From the NCBI RefSeq assembly GCF_024223415.1, contig NZ_CP100500.1: a DNA stretch of 64,000 nt; one strand, written 5' to 3'. A program made the position numbers and the translations under genes. This document shows positions 1 through 26,394 of this stretch, piece after piece (position 1 is the stretch's first letter; every line of letters starts with the position of its first letter). Under the pieces are notes generated by a model. That model did no database searches. It had not been told where the DNA came from and saw only the letters and a program-made list of their open reading frames with translations. Source of the stretch: Escherichia coli (GTDB lineage: Bacteria; Pseudomonadota; Gammaproteobacteria; Enterobacterales; Enterobacteriaceae).

Positions 1-794
1 TTTTCTGCCAGAACCGCGCGCTGGATATCCGGGTAATCATAACCCTTGAGATTCAACAGAATTAACGCTCCCTGCAACGGTGGCAGAGTCGGGTTGAATG
101 CGGCGTTTTCAGCGTAGCTGCCACTGAAAATACGACCGTCTTTACATTCCAGCGCGACACCGCTTGGCGACTTACTGTAAGGCATGTGCGAACGGTTTGC
201 CGCCGCAATCGCTGCCTGAGAAAGCGCATCACCCGTCAGCGCATAGCCGTGATCCTGTTCGTCCATCAGCAGCGTTTTAATCTCCAGATCTTTCGGCCCA
301 AAGGCATCTGGCAGATAGTCACGCAGCGCGTGTGCCTCGCGGCCCGGCAGATGAATACGCAGATCCAGACCGCTGTTCAGTTCATTCATAAACTGACGGC
401 AGTGACCACAAGGCGTGTAGTTAACGGTGATGGCTGCAAGCGCTTTTTCACCACTCAACCAGGCGTGGCTGATCGCGCTTTGTTCGGCATGAACGGTTTG
501 CTGCATTGTCGCACCAATAAATTCCATATTGGCACCGAAATACCAGGTTCCGCTCACACCGCGCGCAATTGCGCCAACATTAAAATTCGACAATGGCGTA
601 CGCGCACAGGCCGCCGCCAGCGGAAGTAGTGCGAATGCCAGCGCGTCTTCGTCCAGCCCCGTTGCGCTCTTCAGCGATGAGACTTGCTCCCCGGTCAACA
701 AAGCGGGGAAGTACTTGTCTGCCAGAATAGGTTCCAGTGCAGATTGCAAGTTATCCGCAAGTTGGGCAAAAGCGGTTTGAAAACGTGGATGCAT
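1..794 (-). CDS. cdd: cytidine deaminase, partial (3' end lies beyond window start)
   Basis: Reverse-strand translation begins [33 protein letters not shown]... and contains the Zn-binding [10 protein letters not shown] motif; matches E. coli Cdd from memory. Confidence 0.9.
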
Positions 795-923
795 GGCGTT
801 GCCTCATAATCATGTAATGGGATAACAGTTTACGAACCCGTTATGGCTTTATATGTGATCTGAATCTCATTAATTATGCAACGCGTGAAACATACATCAA
901 AAATGCGCGACGCATCGCAAATT

Positions 924-2050
<1,127 letters not shown>

Positions 2051-2252
2051 TTAATTCGTAAAACGTGCTACCGATCACATTAAGAAATCAGCGCTTATTT
2101 TTTCGCTCCCCGGCATTACGCAATGCGCAGCGAACTCAGGCATACATCAAGCATAGAGAGGGATTGCAGTTTGCAGCAATCCCTCTTTGCAGACCTTTAA
2201 TCCGCTGACCATAGGCGCTAACATAGCGCCTCATTTTTTTGCGGGTGATGAT

Positions 2253-3200
2253 ATGCGTGTGTTACTGGCACCGATGGAGGGAGTGCTTGACTCTCTGGTG
2301 CGTGAATTGCTGACCGAAGTTAACGACTACGATCTGTGCATCACCGAGTTTGTCCGCGTGGTGGATCAACTGCTGCCGGTAAAAGTCTTTCATCGCATTT
2401 GCCCTGAGCTACAAAACGCCAGCCGGACACCATCTGGTACGCTGGTGCGCGTGCAGTTGTTAGGTCAGTTCCCACAATGGCTGGCAGAGAACGCCGCCCG
2501 TGCGGTGGAGTTAGGTTCCTGGGGCGTGGATCTCAATTGCGGCTGCCCGTCGAAAACGGTTAACGGTAGCGGCGGCGGGGCGACGTTACTCAAAGATCCT
2601 GAACTCATCTACCAGGGTGCAAAAGCGATGCGTGAAGCTGTACCGGCGCATTTGCCCGTCAGCGTGAAAGTGCGTCTGGGCTGGGACAGCGGTGAGAAGA
2701 AATTTGAAATCGCCGATGCGGTTCAACAGGCTGGCGCTACGGAGCTGGTGGTGCATGGGCGGACGAAAGAGCAGGGTTACCGCGCGGAGCATATTGACTG
2801 GCAGGCGATTGGCGATATTCGCCAGCGGCTGAATATTCCGGTGATTGCCAACGGTGAAATCTGGGACTGGCAGAGCGCGCAACAATGCATGGCGATCAGC
2901 GGCTGCGACGCAGTGATGATTGGTCGCGGGGCGCTCAATATTCCCAACCTGAGCCGGGTGGTAAAATATAACGAACCGCGAATGCCGTGGCCGGAGGTGG
3001 TTGCTTTGCTGCAAAAATATACCCGTCTGGAAAAGCAGGGCGATACCGGGTTATATCACGTTGCGCGGATTAAACAGTGGTTGAGTTATTTGCGTAAAGA
3101 ATACGATGAAGCAACGGAATTATTTCAGCATGTTCGGGTGTTGAATAATTCCCCTGATATTGCAAGGGCTATTCAGGCAATTGATATCGAGAAACTCTAA
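2253..3200 (+). CDS. dusC: tRNA-dihydrouridine synthase C
   Basis: Track ORF 2187..3200; start taken at [13 protein letters not shown]...; Dus-family TIM-barrel motifs (LNCGCPS, VHGRT). Confidence 0.9.
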
Positions 3201-3241
3201 AAAACCATAGTGATGTTTTTTGACAATGTGTTAGCTCTTTA

Positions 3242-3502
3242 TCAATAGGCCGCACGGTTGTTTGGTGGCGTCAAAATTGCCGAGGCGTTCCCTGAAGGCC
3301 GGGGCAGCCCACATGGATGTGGGCTGAGGGCGCGTTTTACAGGGATGTTACCTCGCGCCCGACCCGGTAGCCGTAAGGGATAAGCCGAGGGCACCGCGCA
3401 GCGGCGATTTTGTTCGCCAGAGCCCGGGGGTGCAGGGGGCGGCGGCGATTGGCCGCCCCCTGCGCGCTCCTTGCGCCAGTGATTATATGAAGCAATGCAC
3501 AT
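3242..3502. repeat. GC-rich palindromic intergenic element (unclassified structured repeat)
   Basis: Very GC-rich stretch between dusC and yohP with a perfect 12-bp inverted repeat gcagggggcggc...gccgccccctgc and a second hairpin gcccacatggatgtgggc; the overlapping 86-aa Pro/Gly-rich ORF is not credible as coding. Confidence 0.4.
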
Positions 3503-3572
3503 GACAGGAGCGCAACAGGATGAGAGACTGAAATATTCTCGTTATTTTCGGACCTGATGACATTAATTAATT

Positions 3573-3656
3573 TTAAAATATCATCTTAAATACGCCAGTC
3601 ACCACCAGTAGCCCAATCAGGAAAATAATCAATACAGCCCAGAGTATAATTTTCAT
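3573..3656 (-). CDS. yohP: 27-aa small membrane protein
   Basis: Reverse-strand ORF MKIILWAVLIIFLIGLLVVTGVFKMIF; matches the K-12 small protein YohP from memory; too short for the ORF track. Confidence 0.7.
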   Translation of the reverse strand: MKIILWAVLIIFLIGLLVVTGVFKMIF

Positions 3657-3879
3657 TGGCGTTCCTTTATTTGTGAGTGCTGAATAAGTATAGGAAAAAA
3701 CGAAGCCCTTTGCCGTTATCCATAAACGATTAAGATAAATCGGAAGATATCATTCACTTAGTGTATATTTTTCTGGATATGTCGTTTTATTGCCACTGAT
3801 GTATTGCCACGCGAAACTAAAAAATATATCGCAACACACGGTAATCTCCGCGCACCTTTTCTTACCTGATTATTCCCCC

Positions 3880-5316
3880 ATGAATCGTGATTCCTTTTAT
3901 CCAGCCATCGCCTGTTTTCCGCTGTTACTGATGCTGGCCGGGTGTGCGCCTATGCATGAAACCCGCCAGGCGTTAAGCCAGCAAACGCCCGCTGCACAAG
4001 TTGACACCGCATTACCCACGGCGCTGAAAAATGGTTGGCCAGACAGCCAATGGTGGCTGGAGTATCACGATAATCAACTCACTTCCTTAATTAACAATGC
4101 ACTACAGAACGCACCGGATATGCAGGTGGCTGAACAGCGCATTCAGCTAGCTGAAGCCCAAGCGAAGGCAGTTGCCACTCAGGATGGTCCGCAGATCGAC
4201 TTTTCGGCGGATATGGAGCGGCAAAAAATGTCGGCAGAAGGCTTAATGGGGCCGTTTGCTCTGAACGATCCGGCCGCAGGTACGACCGGCCCGTGGTACA
4301 CCAACGGTACTTTTGGCTTAACGGCGGGCTGGCATCTCGATATCTGGGGAAAGAATCGGGCGGAGGTTACTGCCCGCCTGGGTACGGTTAAAGCACGGGC
4401 GGCGGAACGCGAGCAAACCCGCCAATTGCTGGCTGGCAGCGTAGCCCGCCTGTACTGGGAGTGGCAAACCCAGGCGGCGTTAAACACGGTCTTGCAGCAA
4501 ATAGAAAAAGAGCAGAACACCATTATCGCGACCGATCGCCAGCTATATCAGAACGGGATTACTTCTTCAGTTGAAGGTGTGGAAACCGATATTAATGCCA
4601 GCAAAACCCGGCAGCAGCTCAACGATGTCGCGGGGAAAATGAAAATTATTGAGGCACGGTTAAGCGCACTTACAAATAACCAGACAAAGTCATTGAAGCT
4701 TAAACCGGTCGCGTTGCCGAAAGTGGCAAGCCAGCTTCCTGATGAACTGGGGTACTCCTTACTGGCCCGGCGGGCAGATTTGCAGGCGGCGCACTGGTAC
4801 GTTGAGTCATCGCTAAGCACCATTGATGCGGCAAAAGCGGCATTTTATCCTGACATCAACCTGATGGCCTTCCTGCAACAGGATGCGTTGCACTTAAGCG
4901 ATCTGTTCCGTCATTCCGCGCAGCAAATGGGCGTTACGGCAGGCCTGACGCTACCCATTTTCGATAGTGGTCGTCTTAACGCCAATCTCGATATCGCAAA
5001 AGCCGAAAGCAACTTGTCTATCGCCAGCTACAACAAAGCGGTGGTTGAAGCGGTGAATGACGTGGCGCGGGCAGCCAGTCAGGTTCAGACACTGGCGGAG
5101 AAAAACCAGCATCAGGCGCAAATTGAGCGCGATGCCTTGCGTGTGGTAGGTCTTGCGCAGGCGCGCTTTAACGCGGGCATCATTGCTGGTTCCCGCGTCA
5201 GCGAAGCCAGAATCCCCGCGCTGCGTGAGCGGGCCAATGGCCTGTTATTGCAAGGGCAGTGGCTGGATGCCTCCATTCAACTCACTGGTGCGTTGGGCGG
5301 GGGTTACAAACGCTGA
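3880..5316 (+). CDS. mdtQ: outer membrane efflux lipoprotein (OMF family), apparently intact
   Basis: Track ORF 3790..5316; start taken at MNRDSFYPAIACFPLLLMLAGCAP (lipobox LAGC); OprM/TolC-like; uninterrupted 478-aa frame. Confidence 0.8.
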   Translation: MNRDSFYPAIACFPLLLMLAGCAPMHETRQALSQQTPAAQVDTALPTALKNGWPDSQWWLEYHDNQLTSLINNALQNAPDMQVAEQRIQLAEAQAKAVATQDGPQIDFSADMERQKMSAEGLMGPFALNDPAAGTTGPWYTNGTFGLTAGWHLDIWGKNRAEVTARLGTVKARAAEREQTRQLLAGSVARLYWEWQTQAALNTVLQQIEKEQNTIIATDRQLYQNGITSSVEGVETDINASKTRQQLNDVAGKMKIIEARLSALTNNQTKSLKLKPVALPKVASQLPDELGYSLLARRADLQAAHWYVESSLSTIDAAKAAFYPDINLMAFLQQDALHLSDLFRHSAQQMGVTAGLTLPIFDSGRLNANLDIAKAESNLSIASYNKAVVEAVNDVARAASQVQTLAEKNQHQAQIERDALRVVGLAQARFNAGIIAGSRVSEARIPALRERANGLLLQGQWLDASIQLTGALGGGYKR

Positions 5317-5368
5317 TGATATGCGCCTTCTATACTTAACGTTTATTCAGCGTTAAGTGGAGAACTCG

Positions 5369-6130
5369 ATGGCACAGGTTGCGATTATTACCGCCTCCGA
5401 TTCGGGGATCGGCAAAGAGTGCGCGTTATTACTGGCGCAGCAGGGGTTTGATATTGGTATTACCTGGAACTCAGATGAAGAAGGGGCAAAAGATACCGCG
5501 CGTGAGGTAGTTAGCCACGGCGTACGTGCGGAGATCGTGCAGCTGGATCTCGGTAAACTGCCAGAAGGTGCGCAGGCGCTGGAGAAACTCATTCAACGGC
5601 TGGGGCGTATTGATGTGCTGGTGAATAATGCGGGCGCAATGACCAAAGCGCCGTTTCTTGATATGGCTTTCGATGAGTGGCGCAAGATTTTTACCGTTGA
5701 TGTCGATGGTGCATTTTTATGCTCACAAATTGCGGCCCGCCAGATGGTGAAACAAGGGCAGGGCGGTCGCATCATCAACATTACGTCGGTACATGAACAT
5801 ACGCCGCTGCCGGATGCCAGCGCCTACACAGCCGCTAAACATGCGCTCGGTGGGTTAACCAAAGCGATGGCGCTGGAGCTGGTCAGGCATAAGATTTTGG
5901 TGAACGCAGTCGCGCCTGGGGCGATCGCCACGCCAATGAATGGCATGGATGACAGCGACGTGAAGCCCGACGCGGAGCCTTCGATTCCTCTGCGGCGTTT
6001 TGGCGCAACGCATGAGATTGCCAGCCTGGTAGCGTGGCTGTGCTCAGAGGGCGCAAATTACACCACCGGGCAGTCGTTGATAGTGGATGGCGGCTTTATG
6101 TTGGCGAATCCGCAGTTCAACCCAGAATAG
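5369..6130 (+). CDS. yohF: short-chain dehydrogenase/reductase
   Basis: MAQVAIITASDSGIGKE... Rossmann TASxxGIG motif, NNAG, YxxxK; RBS GTGGAG upstream. Confidence 0.9.
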   Translation: MAQVAIITASDSGIGKECALLLAQQGFDIGITWNSDEEGAKDTAREVVSHGVRAEIVQLDLGKLPEGAQALEKLIQRLGRIDVLVNNAGAMTKAPFLDMAFDEWRKIFTVDVDGAFLCSQIAARQMVKQGQGGRIINITSVHEHTPLPDASAYTAAKHALGGLTKAMALELVRHKILVNAVAPGAIATPMNGMDDSDVKPDAEPSIPLRRFGATHEIASLVAWLCSEGANYTTGQSLIVDGGFMLANPQFNPE

Positions 6131-6177
6131 CGCAGTGAGGTGCGTGGTTATTTCAATGGGTAAAATTTTGGTAGGCA

Positions 6178-6250
6178 TGATAAGACGCACAAGCGTCGCA
6201 TCAGGCATGGTGCACCGGATGTCGGATGCGGCGCGAACGCCTTACCCAGG
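6178..6250. repeat. REP/BIME-type palindromic repeats
   Basis: Intergenic gatgcgacgc / ggatgcggcg-type REP consensus copies between yohF and yohD. Confidence 0.55.
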
Positions 6251-6259
6251 GCAATGGTT

Positions 6260-6838
6260 TTACGCCTGATGATCCGGCTTTTTCTTCCCGCGCCGTTTCA
6301 GCCACCAGCGCACGCCTACCACCAGAACCACGACCAGAATCAACCAGACCCAGTGCTTCAAATGCTGGTCGAGAGTGTGCAACCACGGCGCAATCACCTG
6401 ACCACCAGCGTAACCGATAGTGGTAAAAATCAACGCCCAGGCAAATGCGCCGAGAATATTAAGCGGCAGAAAGATTTTCGGCGGCAGCTGGCTGGCACCA
6501 ATCAGCGTCGGGCCAATCACCCGAAAGCCATACATAAAGCGCGTACCAATGACAAACAGATACGGATGGCGTTGGATAAGTTTCTGCGCCCGCTCAATTT
6601 TATCCTGATGTTTCGAGAAACGGCGTAACAGCTTGCCGCCAAACCGCCGCCCGCACAGATAAAGCACCTGGTCGCCAATCATGCCGCCAAGCGCCACAGA
6701 AAGTACCACCAGCGGGAACTTTAATAGCCCCTGATGTGCCGCAACGCCTCCCAGCAAAGTCACGGTTTCACCTTCCGCCAGGCTACCGATCACCAGCGCG
6801 GCATAACCATATTGTGAGATGAGTGTATTGAGATCCAT
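6260..6838 (-). CDS. yohD: DedA-family inner membrane protein
   Basis: Track ORF 6260..6874; start taken at MDLNTLISQYGYAALVIGSLAEGETVTL... (192 aa). Confidence 0.85.
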   Translation of the reverse strand: MDLNTLISQYGYAALVIGSLAEGETVTLLGGVAAHQGLLKFPLVVLSVALGGMIGDQVLYLCGRRFGGKLLRRFSKHQDKIERAQKLIQRHPYLFVIGTRFMYGFRVIGPTLIGASQLPPKIFLPLNILGAFAWALIFTTIGYAGGQVIAPWLHTLDQHLKHWVWLILVVVLVVGVRWWLKRRGKKKPDHQA

Positions 6839-7007
6839 AGGCCAGTCTGTCTCCCTTTGGTTGCCTTTAAGCATACACCCTGGAAATCATTCACGCTGAA
6901 AAAGGACGTACATCAGACGGTGCAAATTACATGAGCGAACAAAAAATAATCACAAGCTGAATTATACTTGAACTGTCAGGTTCATGAACTCACAACAAGG
7001 GGGCGGT

Positions 7008-7595
7008 ATGAGCCATGTCTGGGGACTGTTTTCCCATCCCGATCGTGAAATGCAGGTGATTAATCGCGAAAACGAAACGATTTCTCACCATTACACCCAC
7101 CACGTTTTGCTGATGGCGGCGATTCCGGTGATTTGCGCCTTCATTGGCACTACACAGATTGGCTGGAATTTTGGCGATGGCACTATCCTGAAGTTATCCT
7201 GGTTTACCGGACTGGCGCTGGCTGTCCTGTTTTATGGCGTTATGCTGGCTGGGGTTGCGGTAATGGGGCGGGTCATCTGGTGGATGGCGCGTAATTATCC
7301 GCAGCGTCCGTCACTTGCGCACTGCATGGTCTTCGCGGGCTACGTTGCAACTCCGCTGTTTTTAAGCGGTCTGGTGGCGCTTTATCCACTGGTCTGGTTG
7401 TGTGCGCTGGTCGGCACGGTGGCGCTGTTTTACACCGGCTACCTGCTTTACCTTGGTATTCCGAGCTTCCTGAATATCAACAAAGAGGAAGGCCTTAGCT
7501 TCTCTAGTTCGACGCTGGCGATTGGCGTGCTGGTACTGGAAGTGCTGCTCGCCCTAACCGTTATACTATGGGGCTACGGTTATCGTTTGTTCTAG
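7008..7595 (+). CDS. yohC: inner membrane protein (Yip1-like)
   Basis: Track ORF 6984..7595; start taken at MSHVWGLFSHPDREMQ...; multi-TM. Confidence 0.85.
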   Translation: MSHVWGLFSHPDREMQVINRENETISHHYTHHVLLMAAIPVICAFIGTTQIGWNFGDGTILKLSWFTGLALAVLFYGVMLAGVAVMGRVIWWMARNYPQRPSLAHCMVFAGYVATPLFLSGLVALYPLVWLCALVGTVALFYTGYLLYLGIPSFLNINKEEGLSFSSSTLAIGVLVLEVLLALTVILWGYGYRLF

Positions 7596-17804: not shown

Positions 17805-19091
17805 TTACCCCACTTTCTTATGGGGCATACATGGGACACTTTCAGATAGTCTTTTGTTAAGGAGTTCTATCTGTTCGTGATTGTTGTCTTTCATCCATGC
17901 TCCGTAAACATTGAATACCATTTGTGCGTTTGTGTGGCCCATCTGGCTTGCGATAAAACTAGGATTAGCTCCAGCGGCAAGTGACCAGCATGCATAAGTA
18001 TGCCTGGATTGGTACGATTTTCTGTGTCTCAGACCTGCGCGTTTTAAGATACTTGTCCATGACTCCCTGATGGAGTCAACCTTATAGTGCGGTCCGGAAA
18101 ACTGCCGCTGTTTTATTACCTGAGGACTAAAAACAAAAGTGCATTTATGCACAGTACTTCTCCCATATTCCCTCTGCTTTACCTCTACAGAATGTTGCTT
18201 TCCAAGCATGGTCATTTCCGCCTGACTTTTAAGAGCATCAATAGCTGGTTGAACCAGATGAATTGTCCTTCCGGTGCCAGCATCGGTTTTTGGTGGAGTG
18301 AATTCGCCAAGTTTTGTATAATTCCTACGGATGGTTATAGTCCTTGCTTTAAGGTCTATATCTTCCCATGCCAGCGATACCAACTCCCCGTGACGAATAC
18401 CCGTGTATACAGCGAGAATCCACAGGTTTTTTGTTTGTTGATGACGGCAAGCCTCAATAAAACGAATAAATTCGTCACGGGTGAGAGGATCTGGTTTTAC
18501 CTTGGACTTTTTTAAGGGAGCCAGACCGTTAAATGGGTTTCCTGAGGTATAACCATTATCTGTTGCAAATTGAAACATTCCAGCTATGGTTGTCATATAG
18601 TAGTTTACCGTGACCACTGAGCGCCCTTTTATGGAAGAAGTCTTTCCATTAGAAAGCTTTTGGTAACCGGTCAACAAATCTCTCCTTACGAAAAGTAAAT
18701 CCTCTTTTGTTATGGATGAAACCAGTTTTTTTTCACCTAACATTGGTAACATGTTTTTAATTACTGACTGGTAACGGTTAAGTGCATTCGCACAAATCTC
18801 AATTTTCTTAAGGTCCAACCATTTTTCCGAAAGTGCCTTAACGGTTATCTCTCTTTTTCCCAGACCAAAGTGTTTCAGGTTAGGGGAATTAGGGAACTGC
18901 GCGGCGTAGTCGAAACTCCCCATTCTGATTGCAAAACAAACGGAAGTGCGAAGTTCACCTGCGATCTTCCGGTTTTTGGCGGTGTCAGGAACACCGAGGT
19001 TTTCTCTGACACGTTTGCCATTATAGTGAAACCATATACGGAGTGATCCTCCATGGTTTTCAACGCCTGTCGGGTATGATACGTTACTCAT
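17805..19091 (-). CDS. int: phage integrase (tyrosine recombinase)
   Basis: 428 aa; C-terminal catalytic region ...RHTYACWSLAAGANPSFIASQMGHTNAQMVFNVYGAWM; adjacent to attL. Confidence 0.9.
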   Translation of the reverse strand: MSNVSYPTGVENHGGSLRIWFHYNGKRVRENLGVPDTAKNRKIAGELRTSVCFAIRMGSFDYAAQFPNSPNLKHFGLGKREITVKALSEKWLDLKKIEICANALNRYQSVIKNMLPMLGEKKLVSSITKEDLLFVRRDLLTGYQKLSNGKTSSIKGRSVVTVNYYMTTIAGMFQFATDNGYTSGNPFNGLAPLKKSKVKPDPLTRDEFIRFIEACRHQQTKNLWILAVYTGIRHGELVSLAWEDIDLKARTITIRRNYTKLGEFTPPKTDAGTGRTIHLVQPAIDALKSQAEMTMLGKQHSVEVKQREYGRSTVHKCTFVFSPQVIKQRQFSGPHYKVDSIRESWTSILKRAGLRHRKSYQSRHTYACWSLAAGANPSFIASQMGHTNAQMVFNVYGAWMKDNNHEQIELLNKRLSESVPCMPHKKVG

Positions 19092-19124
19092 TAAACCTCC
19101 CAGACGTCCAGGAGCATTAACAGG

Positions 19125-19379
19125 TTAACCGGAACTTGCATTTTTGGCACCTGGTTGTTTCTGGTTTTCGATCCATCGCATAATTTCTTCGATGTTGTAC
19201 AGGCATTCACTGTAGTGCCCCGGATCACCTTCTACAGCGTAATGGCGGTATTCTTTTCCCTGCATCCATGACTTTCTTCTTGCCCGCTCAATGGTGCCAG
19301 GCTTTAGCCCTGTTGATGCAATGAGGACTCTCTCCGTACACCATTTGCTGGGGGTTATCTGATAGATGATTGTTTGCAT
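19125..19379 (-). CDS. excisionase-like protein (putative)
   Basis: 84-aa ORF immediately upstream of int on the same strand; assignment is by position and size only. Confidence 0.45.
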   Translation of the reverse strand: MQTIIYQITPSKWCTERVLIASTGLKPGTIERARRKSWMQGKEYRHYAVEGDPGHYSECLYNIEEIMRWIENQKQPGAKNASSG

Positions 19380-19535
19380 GCCAACCTCATAAAATTTTCA
19401 TCCACGGCAGTGGCACCACACATCAAACATTCGCTTCACAACTTCACGACAGTAGAAGCCGTCAACATCTCGCGTCAGGTCATAGCGATTGCCATAACGC
19501 TGGCGCACCCATAGTTCAAATGCTTTATTCATTCT

Positions 19536-19778
19536 TTACTTCCTTTTCATGGCCCGTAATTTTTTCAGATGAGCTTCCTGCTCTGTTTCTGCCAGAATTT
19601 GTCGGTATTCCTGGTGATCGAGCCGTTCAAACAGTTCATTAAAATCGTTTATTTTTACCGACTGTGTTCTCCCATCCATTCTTCTGTACAACACAGTGTT
19701 GTTTATGCAGCGAATAATTTTTACCGGGTAGCCAGCACTATCGGTGTATATCTGACCACGTTGAATCAGAGCGAACAT
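19536..19778 (-). CDS. hypothetical phage protein (80 aa)
   Basis: ORF in the leftward early operon; no family recognised. Confidence 0.4.
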   Translation of the reverse strand: MFALIQRGQIYTDSAGYPVKIIRCINNTVLYRRMDGRTQSVKINDFNELFERLDHQEYRQILAETEQEAHLKKLRAMKRK

Positions 19779-19865
19779 TCCTTTATCCCCAGCGGAAAAG
19801 CGAATACAGAATAAATGCCACCGCTATTGCAACTCCTACTGCGGTGAATGCTTCAGGCCAATTCA

Positions 19866-20495
19866 TCATTTCACCTCCACGCCGATCCCGGCAATAACAC
19901 AATCCCGTTTGATAGCTTCTTTCACCCAGCGTTTATAGGTTTCCGGATGGAATTTTGCGTTTTTTCCGGTACCGCTCCAGAATGCCTTTGATGTGATATC
20001 GGGCAGGGTGATGGTCAGGCCTTTCTTCTTGCTGCCTTCAGAACTTTTGCAAAAAGTTAATGCGTCGCGTAGTTCTTTAACACACGCATAGTTTTCTGCT
20101 TTCTCTGGGTCGCCGGTACGGTGTTCAGCTTCTTGTCTGCACCATTTGATGACTTTCTCTGCGGCTGCGTGGAGACGCTGACGTTGCCAGTCGTATGTGT
20201 CGACCAGCCCATATGCGTGATTCTTTGCTTTGCTTAATTCAGCGACGAGGCATTCGGAATCAATCAAATTATTTTCCGCAGCGGACAGCGCTTGTTTAAG
20301 TCGCTCGATTTCTTGAGCCATGTAGTAGCCGGTTTTACTCCAGGTATCGACATCATCGTCACTCATATCCAGTTCCATCGACGCCATCAGAACGGCGTCG
20401 TGATAGTTCTGGCTACCGCAGGTGATTGCAACGACGTAGGAGTCACTATTTTCTCGTTTATGGATAAGTACAACTGGGTTTTTGATCTTGCTCAT
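19866..20495 (-). CDS. hypothetical phage protein (209 aa)
   Basis: MSKIKNPVVLIHKREN...; RBS GAGGTG upstream; no family recognised. Confidence 0.5.
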   Translation of the reverse strand: MSKIKNPVVLIHKRENSDSYVVAITCGSQNYHDAVLMASMELDMSDDDVDTWSKTGYYMAQEIERLKQALSAAENNLIDSECLVAELSKAKNHAYGLVDTYDWQRQRLHAAAEKVIKWCRQEAEHRTGDPEKAENYACVKELRDALTFCKSSEGSKKKGLTITLPDITSKAFWSGTGKNAKFHPETYKRWVKEAIKRDCVIAGIGVEVK

Positions 20496-20503
20496 TCCGC
20501 ACC

Positions 20504-20599
20504 TCAGTAATTCATTAAAAATTTATATTCAATCAGCGCACCGAAAACGACGGACGCCAGCAGCAGACCAAACAGCATGGACAGGAGGAATGACTTCAT
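20504..20599 (-). CDS. candidate 31-aa hydrophobic peptide
   Basis: MKSFLLSMLFGLLLASVVFGALIEYKFLMNY; its start overlaps the stop of the upstream 74-aa gene (ATGA); below the track size cutoff. Confidence 0.3.
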   Translation of the reverse strand: MKSFLLSMLFGLLLASVVFGALIEYKFLMNY

Positions 20600-20820
20600 C
20601 GCTTTGCCTCCCGCTGTACGATTTTGTAGGCGCGCAGGATGTCGCGTGTTTTTCCTGACAACGATGACTTAACCCAGAAAAAGCCGCTGCGGTTTTCATA
20701 GATCCCCTGTACATTAAACAGCACCGCATCAACAACGCGGTTATGCTTTTGCAATGTCAGGCAGGAACTGGTGATCACGATGTTCGCTACGGCGCCATAG
20801 TCCTGGTATTGGATTTTCAT
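20596..20820 (-). CDS. hypothetical phage protein (74 aa)
   Basis: ORF abutting the upstream gene in the early-left operon. Confidence 0.4.
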   Translation of the reverse strand: MKIQYQDYGAVANIVITSSCLTLQKHNRVVDAVLFNVQGIYENRSGFFWVKSSLSGKTRDILRAYKIVQREAKR

Positions 20821-21159
20821 TTACATGTTCCCCATAACGGTATCGCTCATGTCGTTAACCATGCTCTGCCAGATTTCTTTGCCGCTTTGCGTCAGCTCGT
20901 TTCCACGAACGCATTTGCTTAACAGCTGAATACCAACGGCTTCCCATTGGGGGTAATTTTCTTTGATAGCCTTCAGAGCATAACCATCGATTAAATCCCT
21001 GATACCTTTAACCCCACCGATGATGTTTACTCGTATGGATTGCCCATTGACATTAATCATGAAATGATCTCCGTTGGTGGCGGATATGTGGTTGTGCAGT
21101 GCAGCCGCATACTGATTTGCCAGCGCATTGAGGCGGAAATTTTGTGTAATGAGTGGCAT
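20821..21159 (-). CDS. hypothetical phage protein (112 aa)
   Basis: MPLITQNFRLNALANQYAAALHN...; start overlaps the upstream stop. Confidence 0.45.
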   Translation of the reverse strand: MPLITQNFRLNALANQYAAALHNHISATNGDHFMINVNGQSIRVNIIGGVKGIRDLIDGYALKAIKENYPQWEAVGIQLLSKCVRGNELTQSGKEIWQSMVNDMSDTVMGNM

Positions 21160-21905
21160 TATTTACCCTCCCAACCAATCACCTGAAACAGCCCCATTTT
21201 CGGGTGATACCAGCGGGTACCGCGTGGCTCTGCCTCTGACATCATCTGATGAAATGCTTTCATGAACGGCTCAAGCTCCACGATAGCCCGGCGAGAAAGA
21301 AGACCATCTGGCGTCATAAATTCGTGCGTATCGGTTGGGATGCTGTAGGCATTGACCAGATTGCGGCACTTGGCATCAGTCATTCCGCTTTTGGCGACCA
21401 CCTGGCGATAACCGACATATCCGGCGCGCATATTTCCGCGTTTGATGTTCTCCACAGCTTTGGTGACCGTTTCGATCTTCTCTTCAACATGACTCAGGCG
21501 CTTCTGCTGGCGAACGGCATCGGCGGCCATTGCAGCGATCATCTCCATTTCCGTCAGCGGCGCGTGAGTTCGGAAATAGCTGTTAACCAGTTCGCGCTGA
21601 ACCTGCCATGCAAGAGTATCGTTAAAAGGCTTCGTCAACATCAGGTAACCAGACTCGAAAAGAATGATCCCTTTGGCAGTTCGCGCGGCAAAGGCATCAG
21701 AAAGTGACTCCGTACGTATTACGTCCGCAGTCATTTCAAGAAAATCCACCCCTTCGATAAAGTGAGAACGGTTGCGGTTAAACGCAGCACGGGCGGTACC
21801 TTCCGGGCGCTGGTGGACGTCATCAATCATTGCAAATGTCACAACACGCTGACCGCGATATTCGATTACCGGAAACTGTTTGTTGTTGATGGTTACAGTA
21901 TTCAT
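21159..21905 (-). CDS. ORF6N/KilA-N-like domain protein (antirepressor-like)
   Basis: Track ORF 21159..21980; start taken at MNTVTINNKQFPVIEYRGQRVVTFAMIDDV... with GGAG RBS; N-terminal region resembles the ORF6N/Bro-N DNA-binding fold. Confidence 0.5.
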   Translation of the reverse strand: MNTVTINNKQFPVIEYRGQRVVTFAMIDDVHQRPEGTARAAFNRNRSHFIEGVDFLEMTADVIRTESLSDAFAARTAKGIILFESGYLMLTKPFNDTLAWQVQRELVNSYFRTHAPLTEMEMIAAMAADAVRQQKRLSHVEEKIETVTKAVENIKRGNMRAGYVGYRQVVAKSGMTDAKCRNLVNAYSIPTDTHEFMTPDGLLSRRAIVELEPFMKAFHQMMSEAEPRGTRWYHPKMGLFQVIGWEGK

Positions 21906-21948
21906 TTTTATCTCCAGACAGCCCGGCGTGTAATACCGGGCATATGTA

Positions 21949-22776
21949 TTACTTAACCTGAATAAATGGTGTGTTGGCACCGCTGGTCATGTATTGCGGC
22001 AGTGTACCGTTCCACTTGTTGATGGCTTCCAGCTCCATAACGTTTGGGTTCTGGCGCAGAGCTTCACCGCGTAAACGAATAGCATCGGCTTCGGCCTGGG
22101 CTTTTGTGCGAATCGCATCTGCCTGTCCGGCAGCTTCCGCGCGCAACATGTTGGCTTCCGCTTCGCGCTGTTTTACTTCCTGCTCGCGTTGCAGGGTTTT
22201 CTGGTTGGCCGTGACTTTGGCATTAATGCTGTCGATAACGGTTGGCGGGTACTCCGGCTTACCCACATATGAGAGGCTCATTACCTGAATACCGATAGGT
22301 GTCATCTCTGCCTGAATGTCTTTAAGAGCTTCATCCAGCAGCTCAGACTTGCCGCCGTCGATAAATTTGTCAGTGGTCATTTTGCTGGCCAGTCGGTTGA
22401 GTGCGTCGGCGATCTTCTGGCGCAGGTCAGTGTCGGTAATGTCATCCACGCCTTTGCGGTAGGTCTGAAACACCGTGGTAACTTTGGATGGATCAACTTT
22501 GTAGGCCACGCCAATGTGATAGCCGATGGTTGTACCGTCACTCATCTGGAAACTGAACGGTTCATCGTAGGTCTTCATTTGTTTGAAGGTGGGGAAGATA
22601 TAAACTTCAGTATTCCAGCCAGTCCAGTAGCGACCAACACCGACCACCTCACCGACGCCTTTGTCGTCGCCCAGTTTATTTACCTTGATGCCAACATTAC
22701 CTGGTTCAACGCGATCGCAACCGACAAGGCCAATAGTCGGCAGAACAATGGCTAAAGCAAAAATAATTTTTTTCAT
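21949..22776 (-). CDS. SPFH/band-7 (prohibitin-like) domain lipoprotein
   Basis: MKKIIFALAIVLPTIGLVGC lipoprotein signal (lipobox LVGC); central SPFH-like domain and Ala/Glu/Gln-rich coiled coil (QREQEVKQREAEANMLRAEAAGQADAIR). Confidence 0.7.
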   Translation of the reverse strand: MKKIIFALAIVLPTIGLVGCDRVEPGNVGIKVNKLGDDKGVGEVVGVGRYWTGWNTEVYIFPTFKQMKTYDEPFSFQMSDGTTIGYHIGVAYKVDPSKVTTVFQTYRKGVDDITDTDLRQKIADALNRLASKMTTDKFIDGGKSELLDEALKDIQAEMTPIGIQVMSLSYVGKPEYPPTVIDSINAKVTANQKTLQREQEVKQREAEANMLRAEAAGQADAIRTKAQAEADAIRLRGEALRQNPNVMELEAINKWNGTLPQYMTSGANTPFIQVK

Positions 22777-22961
22777 CTTTTATCCTTAGTGAAAGAAAGA
22801 CCCTTGTAAATGGCATAAATGCAGGGCGGGGTCAGAAACGCCAGTGCAAAGCCAGAAATAACTGCTATCGTATCCTTCATGGATATAAGGAACGGAACGA
22901 TTAATCCGTAAATACATGTGATAATTGCCAGTGATATAACTATTCTGAAATAAATGTTCAT
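22773..22961 (-). CDS. small two-TM membrane protein (62 aa)
   Basis: MNIYFRIVISLAIITCIYGLIVPFLISMK...; its stop overlaps the start of the SPFH lipoprotein gene. Confidence 0.5.
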   Translation of the reverse strand: MNIYFRIVISLAIITCIYGLIVPFLISMKDTIAVISGFALAFLTPPCIYAIYKGLSFTKDKR

Positions 22962-23021
22962 GGTCCTCCTGATGTATTCGGCTTGCCTTATTTAATTGCG
23001 TCATAGTTAATTTCGTTTACG

Positions 23022-23267
23022 TCAGAATGGTTTTGTTGCCATCAGTTCGTAATATCCGGCGCTCCATGTGTCATATTTTCTGAACCATTTTTCTGTATAC
23101 TGTTTCCTGGCGATGAGTCTGCGCAGTCGTCTGATTGTTCGCTGGTGTGCGCGGGTATACTCTGTGGTTGATTCTCCACGTTTCCATATCTCATTCCTGT
23201 TGAAGATAAAACGCTTGTCAGGATAGCGTTGTCGGAATCCTGAACGTTCAAAAGCGCGGGTGGTCAT
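23022..23267 (-). CDS. hypothetical basic protein (81 aa), possibly a gene remnant
   Basis: Arg/Lys-rich ORF; upstream 23270..23420 holds an out-of-frame fragment (MIDNRTASAIDQALQKHDTPVGPLFFVTRHGR...) across an A8/T8 tract. Confidence 0.3.
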   Translation of the reverse strand: MTTRAFERSGFRQRYPDKRFIFNRNEIWKRGESTTEYTRAHQRTIRRLRRLIARKQYTEKWFRKYDTWSAGYYELMATKPF

Positions 23268-23601
23268 AAAGAATGCCAGGTAACGAATTGCCGTTTTTCG
23301 AGTGAGGCATTTTTTTTGTTCTTCCGTGGCGTGTTACAAAAAATAACGGGCCGACGGGTGTATCATGTTTCTGTAATGCCTGGTCAATGGCGCTGGCGGT
23401 GCGGTTGTCGATCATTTCTTTATTTCTCCCGAATAACGTTCATGACTCATTACTTCCCAGTTCCGGCCGTCGTCTTTCGATAACAGCCGCCAGCGACGGT
23501 TAACCTTCAGACTGAGATATCCGGTGCGCTGTATCCGATGCGGAAATATCCGTCGGCATCGGTACAACAACAGGACCTGCAATGCCTGCCGGTGGATCCG
23601 C

Positions 23602-23817
23602 TCAGGAATGCGTGTTGCTGTTAATGCCACCGGTTTCCTCCTGAGCAGGTGCTGTTATCTGATACCCCGCTCTTTCTGCCAGCCGTATGAATGTATCCAT
23701 GCTGGCAATCAGCTCGCCATCGCGGACTTTGCAGACACCTGTGACTTGGCCATTTTCAATTGTCATAACGATCTGCACTTTTTCGCGCACAACAGATACA
23801 GGGGATAAATTAGCCAT
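23602..23817 (-). CDS. hypothetical phage protein (71 aa)
   Basis: Start overlaps the upstream gene stop (ATGA). Confidence 0.35.
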   Translation of the reverse strand: MANLSPVSVVREKVQIVMTIENGQVTGVCKVRDGELIASMDTFIRLAERAGYQITAPAQEETGGINSNTHS

Positions 23818-24176
23818 CAGTTAATTCCTCCACTGGTATATTTTTCTTTTTCGTAATCAACAACCTCTTTTAAAAGGTTGTCTACAATTAACTTCCCCGA
23901 TTCAGTTAGATACTCAGTGTGTTGATTAATATTGATGGCATTGCGGTATGCGGCAAGTATTGCGGTCTCGCCATCCGTCCGTCCAAATTCAACACGGGTA
24001 AGACCTTCAAATCGTAATAACAGTTGTGTCATGAAGTGTTCCGTAATTTCGATGGTAGTTAACCCTCCGTCAGGAAGATTTACGATGAGAAGATTTCCTC
24101 CTGTTTTACGTTGCATCCGCTGTAATGCTGTTGTGACTATGCGGTGACGATATTTACCAATGATTTCATATGCCAT
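23817..24176 (-). CDS. hypothetical phage protein (119 aa)
   Basis: MAYEIIGKYRHRIVTTALQRMQRK...; no family recognised. Confidence 0.45.
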   Translation of the reverse strand: MAYEIIGKYRHRIVTTALQRMQRKTGGNLLIVNLPDGGLTTIEITEHFMTQLLLRFEGLTRVEFGRTDGETAILAAYRNAININQHTEYLTESGKLIVDNLLKEVVDYEKEKYTSGGIN

Positions 24177-24179
24177 TTG

Positions 24180-24278
24180 TTATTTCCCGTATGCTTTCCT
24201 AAGAAACAGTATTGCAACTGACCAGTATCCTGCATTAGCCATTAATAAGGCGGTTTTATAAGCGCTTCTATTTTTCAT
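24180..24278 (-). CDS. candidate 32-aa hydrophobic peptide
   Basis: MKNRSAYKTALLMANAGYWSVAILFLRKAYGK with GGTGA upstream; below the track cutoff. Confidence 0.3.
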   Translation of the reverse strand: MKNRSAYKTALLMANAGYWSVAILFLRKAYGK

Positions 24279-24360
24279 GTATCACCATTATTTTCTGGTT
24301 GTGAAAACTCCCGACCAGAGGCCGTCATGTTTTTATGTGTGATTTTTTATTGAGTATTCT

Positions 24361-24552
24361 TTATTCGTTACGTAGTGTTTCTATATACTCGTAAGCCATT
24401 TCACAGGTCTTATTCATGGACCTGATGAGACAACATAAATAATCGTCTAACTCTCCTGAGTCGGGCGAATTCTTAAATATAAATTCAAGCATTGATGTAT
24501 TCTCTTTTATTTGTGCCGCCACTTCCTCAAGAATATTTAATGGAGTTTTCAT
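24361..24552 (-). CDS. small acidic helical protein (63 aa), third gene of the module downstream of cI
   Basis: MKTPLNILEEVAAQIKENTSMLEF...; AAGGAG RBS; start overlaps the upstream stop (ATGA). Confidence 0.5.
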   Translation of the reverse strand: MKTPLNILEEVAAQIKENTSMLEFIFKNSPDSGELDDYLCCLIRSMNKTCEMAYEYIETLRNE

Positions 24553-24740
24553 GTTCTTTGCTCCTTTAATGTGTCTCTGGCGCTTCTGGCGTATTGTTGT
24601 GCAAGTAAAAAGATGTCATCCGAAAGTTCATCACATTCTTCATCACCTGAAGCCGAAATGATTAACCCCGCTTCAAGCAGTACGGCAATGTGATGAAAAG
24701 CTGTTTCCGGTTCGTTGGTGAGGCCTTTGAACATTTTCAT
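24549..24740 (-). CDS. small protein (62 aa) paralogous to the N-terminal domain of the adjacent HTH regulator
   Basis: MKMFKGLTNEPETAFHHIAVLLEAGLIISASGDEECDELSDDIFLLAQQYARSA aligns with residues ~8-60 of the 139-aa protein; AGGAGG RBS 9 nt upstream. Confidence 0.55.
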   Translation of the reverse strand: MKMFKGLTNEPETAFHHIAVLLEAGLIISASGDEECDELSDDIFLLAQQYARSARDTLKEQRT

Positions 24741-24741
24741 T

Positions 24742-25161
24742 TTATGCTTCCTCCTGATTTTGTTTATAAGCACCAGTCAGTAACCACATCGGATCACAGC
24801 CAAGAACATTAGCCAGAGGAATAATCTGGCTTGCCAGAGGCTCCCTCTTGCCACTTTCCCACTGGATGATAATTTCTTCATCGAGATTGAGCAGCCTGGC
24901 GAGTTCGGCGGTTGTTAAGCCGCAGTCTTCGCGTTGGGTGCGAATCCGATTCTGGGAATTAATAGCTAAATTTTGTTTGCATAAACGTGACGCGGTGAGG
25001 CTATATTTTTGAGTTACAGCCAGGATGGAGCTGGCAAGTTCAATTAACTCAGGGTTATTGCTGCTATACAGTAGTGCACCAGCCCCTACTAAGAGCTGAA
25101 TATTCTCAAGAGCATCGTGCTGATTTGTTGGTAACCCCATATACGATGACATTTTTCTCAT
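24742..25161 (-). CDS. XRE-family HTH regulator with an N-terminal helical domain (139 aa)
   Basis: C-terminal HTH CGLTTAELARLLNLDEEIIIQWESGKREPL; first gene after the promoter downstream of cI; GAGG RBS. Confidence 0.6.
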   Translation of the reverse strand: MRKMSSYMGLPTNQHDALENIQLLVGAGALLYSSNNPELIELASSILAVTQKYSLTASRLCKQNLAINSQNRIRTQREDCGLTTAELARLLNLDEEIIIQWESGKREPLASQIIPLANVLGCDPMWLLTGAYKQNQEEA

Positions 25162-25198
25162 CCTCTATAATTGCTTTGGTGAGTTCGATACCTATGTC

Positions 25199-25235
25199 AA
25201 GATAATAGGTTTACCGATTTCACCTGTCAATCGGT
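25199..25235 (-). promoter_or_regulatory. strong sigma70-type leftward promoter (pL-like) with overlapping inverted repeat
   Basis: Minus strand reads TTGACA-17 bp-TATTAT; inverted repeat ACCGAT(n11)ATCGGT overlaps the -35; TTATCG half-sites resemble the OR palindrome. Confidence 0.5.
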
Positions 25236-25250
25236 TTATCGATTTTTTCC

Positions 25251-25280
25251 AAAAAAAAGCCCACTTAAGAGTGGGCGGGT
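25251..25280 (-). terminator. rho-independent terminator downstream of cI
   Basis: Minus strand hairpin GCCCAC-tcttaa-GTGGGC followed by T8, 15 bp past the cI stop. Confidence 0.55.
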
Positions 25281-25294
25281 TAAATGATTTTTGC

Positions 25295-25987
25295 TTATGC
25301 AAAACGGTGTAGTGTCATAGGCCAACTGACAATTACTTTTCCGTCAATGTGAAGTTGTTCGAAGTCTTCCGGTTCGATAGCCCAATCCTTGTAAGCTGGG
25401 TTGTCAGATATCACCGTTAGAGTATCTTTGATTTTTTGAAGTCTTTTGATGTGCGATGTTCCAGAGTATGTAAAGGCGTATATACCATCACCATTAAATG
25501 TGCGAACTGATACATCTACAAATACCAAGTCTTCAGGGTCTATTGTGCCTTTCATACTGTCGCCGTGGGCGTTTATTGCTTTGATTGCTGATGCTGGTCT
25601 GCCGCCAAAAACTCTTGATGCGTATCCTGGCTCTATCGCTATAGATCTGACAATGTCAGGAAAATCAGAGTTATAACTACCAGGTCCGCAACTATATCTG
25701 ATGTCTAAAACATCCACGACATACGAATCAGTAACCCAATCTTCAGAAATGTTACGTATTTGGTGTGAGTCTGCAGAGGTCACGATTTCCATTGGGCCAA
25801 CACCCGATGCGAGCCATTCCGGGTTAACGCCCAAAACTTTTGCTATTTCGACTGTTTTTCTGGAACCGTTGGCTTTGTTAAGTAGTTGGTTAACACTGGA
25901 CTGAGCCATACCCACTTCTTTGGCCAGCCTACCTTGCGTAAATTTTGCGTTGCGCATAGCTAAATCAAGTCGTTCTGAAAATGTCAT
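25295..25987 (-). CDS. cI: CI-like repressor (HTH + S24 LexA-type peptidase domain)
   Basis: N-terminal HTH (FTQGRLAKEVGMAQSSVNQL) and C-terminal S24 autocleavage domain (AHGDSMKG...IKRL); divergent from the cro-like gene. Confidence 0.85.
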   Translation of the reverse strand: MTFSERLDLAMRNAKFTQGRLAKEVGMAQSSVNQLLNKANGSRKTVEIAKVLGVNPEWLASGVGPMEIVTSADSHQIRNISEDWVTDSYVVDVLDIRYSCGPGSYNSDFPDIVRSIAIEPGYASRVFGGRPASAIKAINAHGDSMKGTIDPEDLVFVDVSVRTFNGDGIYAFTYSGTSHIKRLQKIKDTLTVISDNPAYKDWAIEPEDFEQLHIDGKVIVSWPMTLHRFA

Positions 25988-26019
25988 TGCGATTTTCCTC
26001 CCCTCTCTATCTTGGCTAG

Positions 26020-26039
26020 TTTATCGGCTTTCCGATAAA
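26020..26039. promoter_or_regulatory. operator-like palindrome in the cI/cro intergenic region
   Basis: TTTATCGG-cttt-CCGATAAA perfect inverted repeat. Confidence 0.5.
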
Positions 26040-26055
26040 TATTCTAGGTTTAACG

Positions 26056-26084
26056 TTGAATATCGCTTTTCCTGTTGTTATTAT
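26056..26084 (+). promoter_or_regulatory. pR-like promoter
   Basis: TTGAAT-17 bp-TATTAT followed by AGGAGA RBS and the cro-like ATG at 26107. Confidence 0.45.
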
Positions 26085-26106
26085 GCGTTCAATAGGAGAT
26101 GCGATT

Positions 26107-26394
26107 ATGAAACATAAAGCCATAGAGAAAGCTATTGAGATTCTTGGAAGTCAGCAAGCCTTAGCCAAGCGATGCGGAAAGGCCCAGTCAACAGTCTGCG
26201 ATTGGTTGAACTGCAAGAACAAGATTTCACCAGAATTTGTGCCGTTATTGGTTGCAGCTGTCGACGGAAAGATCCAAGCGTATGAATTTCGTCCAGACCT
26301 ACCAGAGCTTTTTCCACATCCAAGCTTAGCGCGCACGGGGGAGGTGAAGGGCTTGTATGTCCCAGAATTACGTTCAGACAGAGATGCCATCTAG
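26107..26394 (+). CDS. Cro-like HTH regulator
   Basis: MKHKAIEKAIEILGSQQALAKRCGKAQSTVCDWLN... HTH; divergent from cI; track ORF 26056..26394 starts at an upstream alternative codon. Confidence 0.65.
   Translation: MKHKAIEKAIEILGSQQALAKRCGKAQSTVCDWLNCKNKISPEFVPLLVAAVDGKIQAYEFRPDLPELFPHPSLARTGEVKGLYVPELRSDRDAI

Follow-up and report, generated by a model that had tools for sequence, protein, structure and literature searches.

The 64,000-nucleotide (nt) stretch of Escherichia coli DNA analysed here (contig NZ_CP100500.1; hereafter the window) holds a lambdoid prophage integrated beside mlrA, and a 31-codon open reading frame (ORF) is situated on the minus strand of its leftward early region, between genes encoding proteins of 74 and 209 amino acids (aa). 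The ORF has the position and translation (MKSFLLSMLFGLLLASVVFGALIEYKFLMNY) given in an earlier note on this DNA, and its status as a genuine protein-coding gene, with a protein sequence under purifying selection, is strongly supported by comparison with related sequences. It is packed start-to-stop between its two neighbours, as expected for the translational coupling that the note had proposed, and is organized as follows:

20504..20599, minus strand: the 31-codon ORF, with its ATG at 20599-20597 and its TGA at 20506-20504
20596..20599, minus strand: ATGA overlap of the 74-aa gene TGA with the small ORF ATG, read from the sequence
20607..20612, minus strand: Shine-Dalgarno (SD) sequence GGGAGG, 7 nt 5′ of the small ORF ATG and within the 3′ end of the 74-aa gene
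20500..20505, minus strand: GAGGTG, ribosome-binding site for the 209-aa gene; overlaps the stop codon of the small ORF
20596..20820, minus strand: upstream 74-aa gene, matching PHROG 1001 (no assigned function; E value 4.9e-33)
19866..20495, minus strand: downstream 209-aa gene, matching PHROG 492 (no assigned function)

The stop codon of the small ORF forms part of 5′-TGAGGTG, located 8 nt 5′ of the 209-aa gene ATG (20495), and the SD/anti-SD duplex at the small ORF is −10.3 kcal/mol.

The length of the ORF is by itself within chance expectation, with 100 ORFs of at least 25 aa overlapping the surrounding 6.5 kb, and the case for a gene therefore rests on comparison with other sequences. Relatives were gathered by a motif-guided scan of IMG/VR (81 confirmed, 80 kept), to which E. 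coli and GTDB representative genomes were added; a first set of 84 loci is joined by eight further enterobacterial genomes, which bring the total to 92. The small ORF is intact in all 92, with lengths of 28–34 codons. Its 84-nt core (28 codons) occurs in 46 distinct versions (47 with the fused locus L083 described below), which diverge to as little as 63% nucleotide identity with no insertions or deletions. The ORF frame is open in all 46 distinct cores and the remaining two sense frames are interrupted by stop codons in every one. The Nei-Gojobori ratio of nonsynonymous to synonymous substitution rates (dN/dS) across these cores is 0.22 in frame, versus 0.54 and 3.14 in the shifted frames, and the entropies at codon positions 1, 2 and 3 are 0.59, 0.21 and 0.69, such that position 2 varies least. 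Pairwise dN/dS values are mostly 0.03–0.46, rising to near 1 in a few comparisons of one of the two most divergent helix types with the other; loci L003 and L054, for example, differ by 12 synonymous and 2 nonsynonymous changes. The earlier note had named a lack of coding conservation as what would overturn the gene, and the open frame and in-frame dN/dS point the other way.

Constraint is most evident in codons 20–28, where alternative codon states among the 46 distinct sequences are 12 synonymous and 3 nonsynonymous. The variants in this segment include GGT/GGC/GGG, GCG/GCA/GCC, CTG/TTG/CTA/CTT, GAA/GAG, TAT/TAC and AAA/AAG, and because this variation is mostly synonymous the constraint acts at the level of the protein, rather than the DNA or RNA.

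These data also bear on the alternative that there is no protein gene on this strand, and that the locus carries instead an antisense gene, an antisense RNA (as in type I toxin-antitoxin-like systems), or a DNA or RNA element. One antisense frame is indeed open in all 46 sequences, and a weak terminator-like hairpin is located on the plus strand at 20630-20647. However, the wobble positions of this frame and the sense frame coincide, the antisense dN/dS is 0.47 as compared to 0.22 for the sense frame, and position 2 of the antisense frame corresponds to the highly variable position 1 of the sense frame (entropy 0.59). A simple consensus scan finds no plus-strand promoter-like site from 19000 to 25400, the plus-strand RNA folds no better than shuffled sequences (z +1.49; sense RNA z −1.34), Rfam provides no match at E values up to 1, and the flanks of the putative antisense element differ in each context. 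We give this alternative scarcely any credence.

A strong ribosome-binding site accompanies the ORF in nearly all of its contexts. SD/anti-SD duplexes of −4 kcal/mol or stronger are present in 31 of 32 distinct upstream contexts, compared with 26% for the background set of ATGs from these loci, and the mean duplex is −8.3 kcal/mol versus −2.5 kcal/mol for the background ATGs. A hairpin occluding the SD sequence is predicted in the mRNA of the window (the sense fold with z −1.34) and was considered as a coupling device, but pairing of the SD with the ORF is 0.61 in the 47 contexts versus 0.62 in codon-shuffled controls, and is a by-product of pyrimidine-rich Phe, Leu and Ser codons. Programmed frameshifting from the 74-aa gene into the small ORF was likewise rejected, as the small ORF has its own ATG and SD sequence behind unrelated genes and there is no slippery heptamer visible.

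The genes flanking the ORF vary considerably. There are at least five unrelated upstream families (the 74-aa PHROG 1001 protein and proteins of 135, 73, 193 and 146 aa) and eight unrelated downstream families, one of which is that of the 209-aa gene. The 74-aa gene is the commonest neighbour but is not obligatory, lying directly upstream in 48 of 84 loci and being present in 53 of 92; in Fels-1 it is present without the small ORF. The commonest upstream junction is a 4-nt start/stop overlap, with nearly all others being 1-nt overlaps or gaps of 4–19 nt, and in other contexts the downstream start codon is usually 2–16 nt past the small ORF stop. In BLAST comparisons with other E. coli prophages, homology blocks stop within ~5 nt of the ORF's stop (query 220 and 222), and new blocks begin from 221 and 231. 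Because of its varied neighbours, the ends of homology blocks at the ORF, and the presence/absence pattern in Fels-1, the small ORF behaves as an independent mosaic module. Clustering of all plus-strand ORFs, with flanks of at least 3 kb on each side, revealed no obligatory partner gene; none is universal and the most frequent is present in 74 of the 92 loci.

In two sequences the small ORF and the 74-aa gene form a single reading frame. In locus L083 (2971-3057) an in-frame deletion leaves codons 1–11 of the 74-aa gene joined to approximately codon 15 of the small ORF (MKIQHQDYGAVAAVVFGALIEYKFLIGF). The second (P0003) is an 85-aa prediction truncated by the contig; its frame continues from the C-terminal part of the 74-aa protein directly into that of the small ORF (…REAKL-MKPFLL…), seemingly because 1 nt has changed at the ATGA overlap. 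Sequencing errors may account for both joins; alternatively, the joins may hint that the two products are functionally linked. The AlphaFold2 model of the 74-aa protein is uninformative, with a predicted local distance difference test score (pLDDT) of 47.

The start-to-stop joins with both neighbours, and the location of the stop codon inside the next ribosome-binding site, would also suit a translational relay in which the passage of ribosomes over these 96 nt is what matters and the peptide is functionless. Such a relay puts no constraint on amino acids, whereas dN/dS is 0.22 and 12 of the 15 motif codon variants are synonymous. Moreover, the ORF sequence is kept ahead of eight unrelated downstream genes, and neighbouring genes of the operon adjoin one another with no spacer of this kind; we consider the relay highly improbable.

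The predicted product is hydrophobic, as the earlier note had described, and has two recognizable segments:

20531..20593, minus strand: predicted transmembrane helix, codons 3–23, from hydropathy and AlphaFold2
20516..20542, minus strand: near-invariant motif G-A-L-I-E-Y-K-F-L, codons 20–28, from codon states and protein conservation

The Kyte-Doolittle maximum with a 19-residue span is 2.54 (residues 5–23), and AlphaFold2, with 35 family sequences as input, predicts a single helix of residues 2–28 with a mean pLDDT of 93. Among 35–47 distinct proteins, M1, L22, E24 and F27 are invariant, and K2, L13, L14, G20, I23, Y25 and K26 are at least 90% conserved. Entropies are ~0–0.25 bits at L22, I23, E24, Y25, K26 and F27, compared to 1–2.9 bits at most of positions 3–19, which vary among hydrophobic residues. 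The net charge of the N-terminal flank is +1 to +2 and that of the C-terminal flank 0 to −2 in every variant; as the N-terminal flank is the more positive in all of them, the positive-inside rule predicts an N-in/C-out topology with the E-Y-K-F motif at the periplasmic interface. We infer that this pattern of conservation, in which a near-invariant 9-residue C-terminal motif adjoins a variable hydrophobic N-terminal half, speaks more for a specific binding surface than for generic disruption of membranes.

The same division into a variable hydrophobic N-terminal part and a near-invariant C-terminal part would suit a leader with its cargo, and thus a cleavable signal peptide, in which residues 1–20 direct export and cleavage after V18-F19-G20 releases a C-terminal peptide of 8–14 residues (ALIEYKFL…) to the periplasm or medium. 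V-x-G is permitted as a −3/−1 pair by the established rule, and a family member 90% identical to the window peptide is called a signal peptide by Phobius (PMC11188072, Table S2). However, SignalP 6 is negative for that member, a polar c-region is absent, the hydrophobic stretch of ~20 residues continuing up to and past the putative cleavage site, and the AlphaFold2 helix is uninterrupted through residue 28. Residues F4, S7, L13 and L14 are also more conserved than is usual for signal-peptide h-regions, and no receptor-like gene, such as the adjacent cognate receptor of an arbitrium (AimP-like) system, is linked to the ORF across the loci, as none of the upstream and downstream families described above is universal. 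Cleavage and release is therefore a very unlikely reading. Its extension, that the released ALIEYKFL with 2–6 variable residues acts as a diffusible effector or signal encoded by the phage, equivalent in Gram-negative bacteria to peptide-based communication among phages, would be very improbable indeed.

The small ORF is located within a long leftward-oriented region, in agreement with the early-left operon position proposed in the earlier note; genes from 25161 to 17805 are all on the minus strand in an unbroken string that extends from a strong promoter-like site below the cI-like repressor gene to the excisionase and integrase genes:

25295-25987: cI-like repressor gene (helix-turn-helix and S24 peptidase), with a divergent cro-like gene beyond
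25259-25276: terminator-like hairpin, just below the cI-like gene
25202..25230, minus strand: likely early-left promoter (TTGACA—17 bp—TATTAT; 11 of 12 consensus positions), from a consensus scan; just below the cI-like gene
19125-19379, minus strand: excisionase gene
17805-19091, minus strand: integrase gene

The promoter-like site at 25202..25230 probably drives the early-left operon containing the small ORF. The consensus scan, which is simple and insensitive, finds no other promoter-like site on the minus strand from 24739 to 19000, and none on the coding strand within 4 kb 5′ of the small ORF. The earlier note had suggested that the peptide is a host-killing or exclusion factor; searches of Pfam, NCBIfam and PADLOC give no toxin or defence family that it matches. 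An exclusion role in the lysogen, as for proteins of the Sie, Imm or Cor type, appears less likely, given that this insensitive scan reveals no promoter-like site dedicated to the ORF. The location is not that of a holin or a lysis-cassette gene, which would be found beside the endolysin and spanin genes downstream of Q, as the lysozyme homologue is at ~35.5–36.0 kb in the window, ~15 kb away and on the other strand.

The prophage in the window is a mosaic relative of that in E. coli GF60, with a left arm that is 98.8% identical, replication and morphogenesis regions that are ~97.6% identical, and an unrelated immunity region (window 22965-26348). The GF60 tail genes are broken by IS3 and IS21 elements that have no alignment to the window. 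The GF60 annotation (RefSeq, Prokaryotic Genome Annotation Pipeline) contains only a 159-nt pseudogene fragment of the 209-aa gene (‘missing N-terminus’), thus leaving ~570 nt of a densely coding operon featureless; the full 630-nt ORF is intact in GF60 (loci L003/L086) and is annotated in phage phi467. The early-left region is 97.8% identical over 601 bp to phi467, which is a Stx2f-converting phage (PMC5189129, PMC7366253).

Two further genes within the early-left operon overlap one another. One (21949-22776, minus strand) encodes a 275-aa SPFH/Band-7 protein (Pfam E value 3e-31) with a lipoprotein-like N-terminus (…LVGC), and the second (22773-22961, minus strand), which precedes and overlaps it, encodes a hydrophobic protein of 62 aa that seems to contain two hydrophobic segments. 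HflK/C and QmcA, as members of the SPFH group, modulate FtsH, the protease governing the choice of lambda between lysis and lysogeny. The SPFH gene does not co-occur consistently with the small ORF.

Relatives of the peptide are rare and confined to prophages of the Enterobacteriaceae. A search of 1.84 billion representative proteins with a 3-sequence profile gives 14 matches, of which about 12 are real; all of these are 30–45 aa with the exception of the 85-aa fusion P0003, and there are no distant relatives among them. Named sources of the protein matches are E. coli, Enterobacter, Citrobacter and Pseudocitrobacter. The ORF is carried by 9 of 100,044 species-representative genomes (Citrobacter, Enterobacter, Pseudocitrobacter and Trabulsiella) and by about 18 of 5,426 complete E. 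coli genomes. A tblastn search of 50,697 phage records with the peptide identifies phi467 only, although low-complexity filtering hurts hydrophobic queries of this type. No Pfam, NCBIfam, PHROG, PADLOC or Rfam model matches (best protein-profile E values of 0.06–0.3, below curated cut-offs; no Rfam match at the E value limit given above).

The family is nonetheless already in the databases, as anonymous hypothetical proteins or a catalogue entry. GenBank submitters have annotated the small ORF as ‘hypothetical protein’ (e.g. CUW01254.1 in phi467), and it has no annotation in three RefSeq records (GF60, 25-07338 and UMNK88). A full-text search of one literature library with the motifs GALIEYKFL, ALIEYKF and MNWPEAF (the last from a second micro-ORF described below) returned no paper, and a family member is listed only in a supplementary table of PMC11188072 (‘The Cryptic Bacterial Microproteome’), where Table S2 gives MKPFLLSMLFGLLLVAVVFGALIEYKFLMNY as Entero67K microprotein cluster Citrobacter_76875. 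This sequence is 90% identical to the window peptide (28/31 residues), belongs to the same family, and recurs in loci L046-L053 and L104. The cluster stands there for an intergenic small ORF under purifying selection, and such selection on the family is confirmed independently here; the published record is a catalogue entry only, and its ‘nonTM’ field conflicts with the hydropathy and AlphaFold2 results above.

The octapeptide GALIEYKF is also present exactly in ~294-aa proteins of three Patescibacteria (L087, L093 and L097), within the sequence GIDF(T/I)GGALIEYKF and shortly past the first N-terminal hydrophobic segment. By the SecF motif these proteins appear to be SecF-like, and E. coli SecF carries GLDFTGGTVIEITL at the matching place. 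Homology or mimicry was considered and rejected, as a motif scan of 298 Gb has 10 non-enterobacterial matches, compared with an estimated ~13 expected by chance.

We tentatively propose, at somewhat less than an even chance, that the product is a single-pass inner-membrane microprotein, made upon derepression, that docks on a conserved host membrane protein via its juxtamembrane motif. Apparently lacking a promoter of its own, the ORF would be translated from the long leftward transcript upon prophage derepression or infection. Ribosomes would reach the ORF by reinitiation at the ATGA overlap or by loading on its own strong SD sequence, and termination at its stop codon would hand them to the ribosome-binding site of the next gene. 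The peptide would then insert with Lys2 in the cytoplasm and its short C-terminus at the periplasmic face, in keeping with the positive-inside rule. The hydrophobic N-terminal half would serve as an anchor tolerant of many conservative substitutions, and G20-A-L-I-E-Y-K-F-L28 as the working surface, whose partner would be a conserved protein of the inner membrane, from the enterobacterial host or, less probably, from the phage. Binding would modulate the target membrane protein during early lytic development. A broader version, which we advance with more reserve, is that the family is the first of a new class of phage ‘micro-effectors’, with a conserved interfacial motif that may target one specific inner-membrane protein conserved in the Enterobacteriaceae.

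A precedent for docking is found among small bacterial membrane proteins, which commonly work by binding larger membrane proteins, with MgtS (31 aa), MgtR (30 aa), MgrB (47 aa) and AcrZ (49 aa) among the examples (review PMC12648545). These are similar to the window peptide in their size (~30–50 aa) and single transmembrane helix, and in often being missed in annotation, although there is no sequence similarity (NCBIfam and Pfam are negative). The window gene differs from them in being phage-borne and embedded in an operon, without its own regulated promoter, and with its conserved residues at the C-terminal interface.

Within the leftward early operon of lambda, CIII and Kil are small accessory proteins to which the window gene can be likened. 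CIII is a 54-aa inhibitor of FtsH with an amphipathic, peripherally associated helix, and Kil is a soluble inhibitor of the FtsZ ring; both act on host machinery only after derepression, CIII at the membrane protease FtsH. Unlike the predicted window peptide, neither is transmembrane, and neither is known to be homologous to it.

The main rival to docking on a host membrane protein is a membrane-damaging toxin of the kil type, which would oligomerise in the inner membrane and either collapse the proton-motive force or block a divisome component, arresting the host during lytic growth. The peptide is small, very hydrophobic, and predicted to be a single helix, the small-residue spacings G11-x3-A15 and S16-x3-G20 could aid helix packing, and the early-left operon is the usual site of host-shutoff genes such as kil in lambda-type phages. 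The type I toxins (Hok/Gef, TisB, DinQ, Ibs, Ldr and ShoB) are likewise short hydrophobic helical peptides and are sometimes prophage-borne (PMC12648545). In contrast to these, no antisense RNA or antitoxin promoter was detected at the window gene by the simple consensus scan, Rfam or folding, the gene has no 5′ untranslated region of its own, its start codon overlapping the upstream stop, and the helix does not have the charged or polar face typical of pore formers such as TisB- or Hok-type peptides. No toxin family is matched in the searches reported above, and the strongest constraint is on the short interfacial motif and not on the whole helix. The intactness of the ORF in 92 of 92 loci neither supports nor contradicts toxicity because the state of those prophages was not assessed. 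Taking these points together, we regard a kil-type toxin as rather unlikely.

Several considerations weigh against the proposed docking on a membrane protein. Conserved residues are also found in type I toxins, and a membrane-damaging role is compatible with the conservation pattern. No co-varying partner gene that would point to a target was found across the 92 loci. The programs reported for the 90%-identical member in Table S2 of PMC11188072 give a transmembrane call of ‘nonTM’, a negative SignalP 6 result, and a Phobius call of ‘signal peptide’. Many of the loci are closely related prophages, and sequence counts overstate the number of independent events. The assignment of the promoter and operon has a consensus scan as its sole basis, and the translation, localisation and phenotype of the peptide are predicted.

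A second micro-ORF is coupled in a similar manner at the other end of the 209-aa gene:

19783-19869, minus strand: 28-aa micro-ORF encoding MMNWPEAFTAVGVAIAVAFILYSLFRWG, with an ATG overlapping the 209-aa gene stop (ATGA) and GGAGGTG upstream

Its TAA is followed by 5′-AGGAATG, which contains the ATG of a DUF4222 gene. It has no annotation in phi467 or GF60 and no significant PHROG match (best E value 0.0065). A scan with the pattern MNWPEAF finds such sequences on more than 120 viral contigs and in many different contexts; about 30 are distinct, nearly all are 22–31 aa with a hydrophobic helix past the motif, and these peptides look like a widespread phage microprotein family.

The small ORF is a verified gene for an uncharacterised member of a familiar class, the small hydrophobic accessory proteins of temperate-phage early operons. 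A 31-codon ORF can thus be validated by comparative genomics alone, even where it is unannotated in three RefSeq records, because of its frame-specific purifying selection, the ribosome-binding site kept behind unrelated genes, and the mosaic boundaries at its ends. Together, the two coupled micro-ORFs suggest that peptides of this kind form a systematic component of phage early operons that annotation under-represents. The near-invariant G-A-L-I-E-Y-K-F-L, found only in enterobacterial lambdoid prophages including a Stx2f-converting phage, is a compact experimental target, and if it does bind a specific host membrane protein it would represent a new point of contact between phage and host and a minimal peptide tool against that protein.

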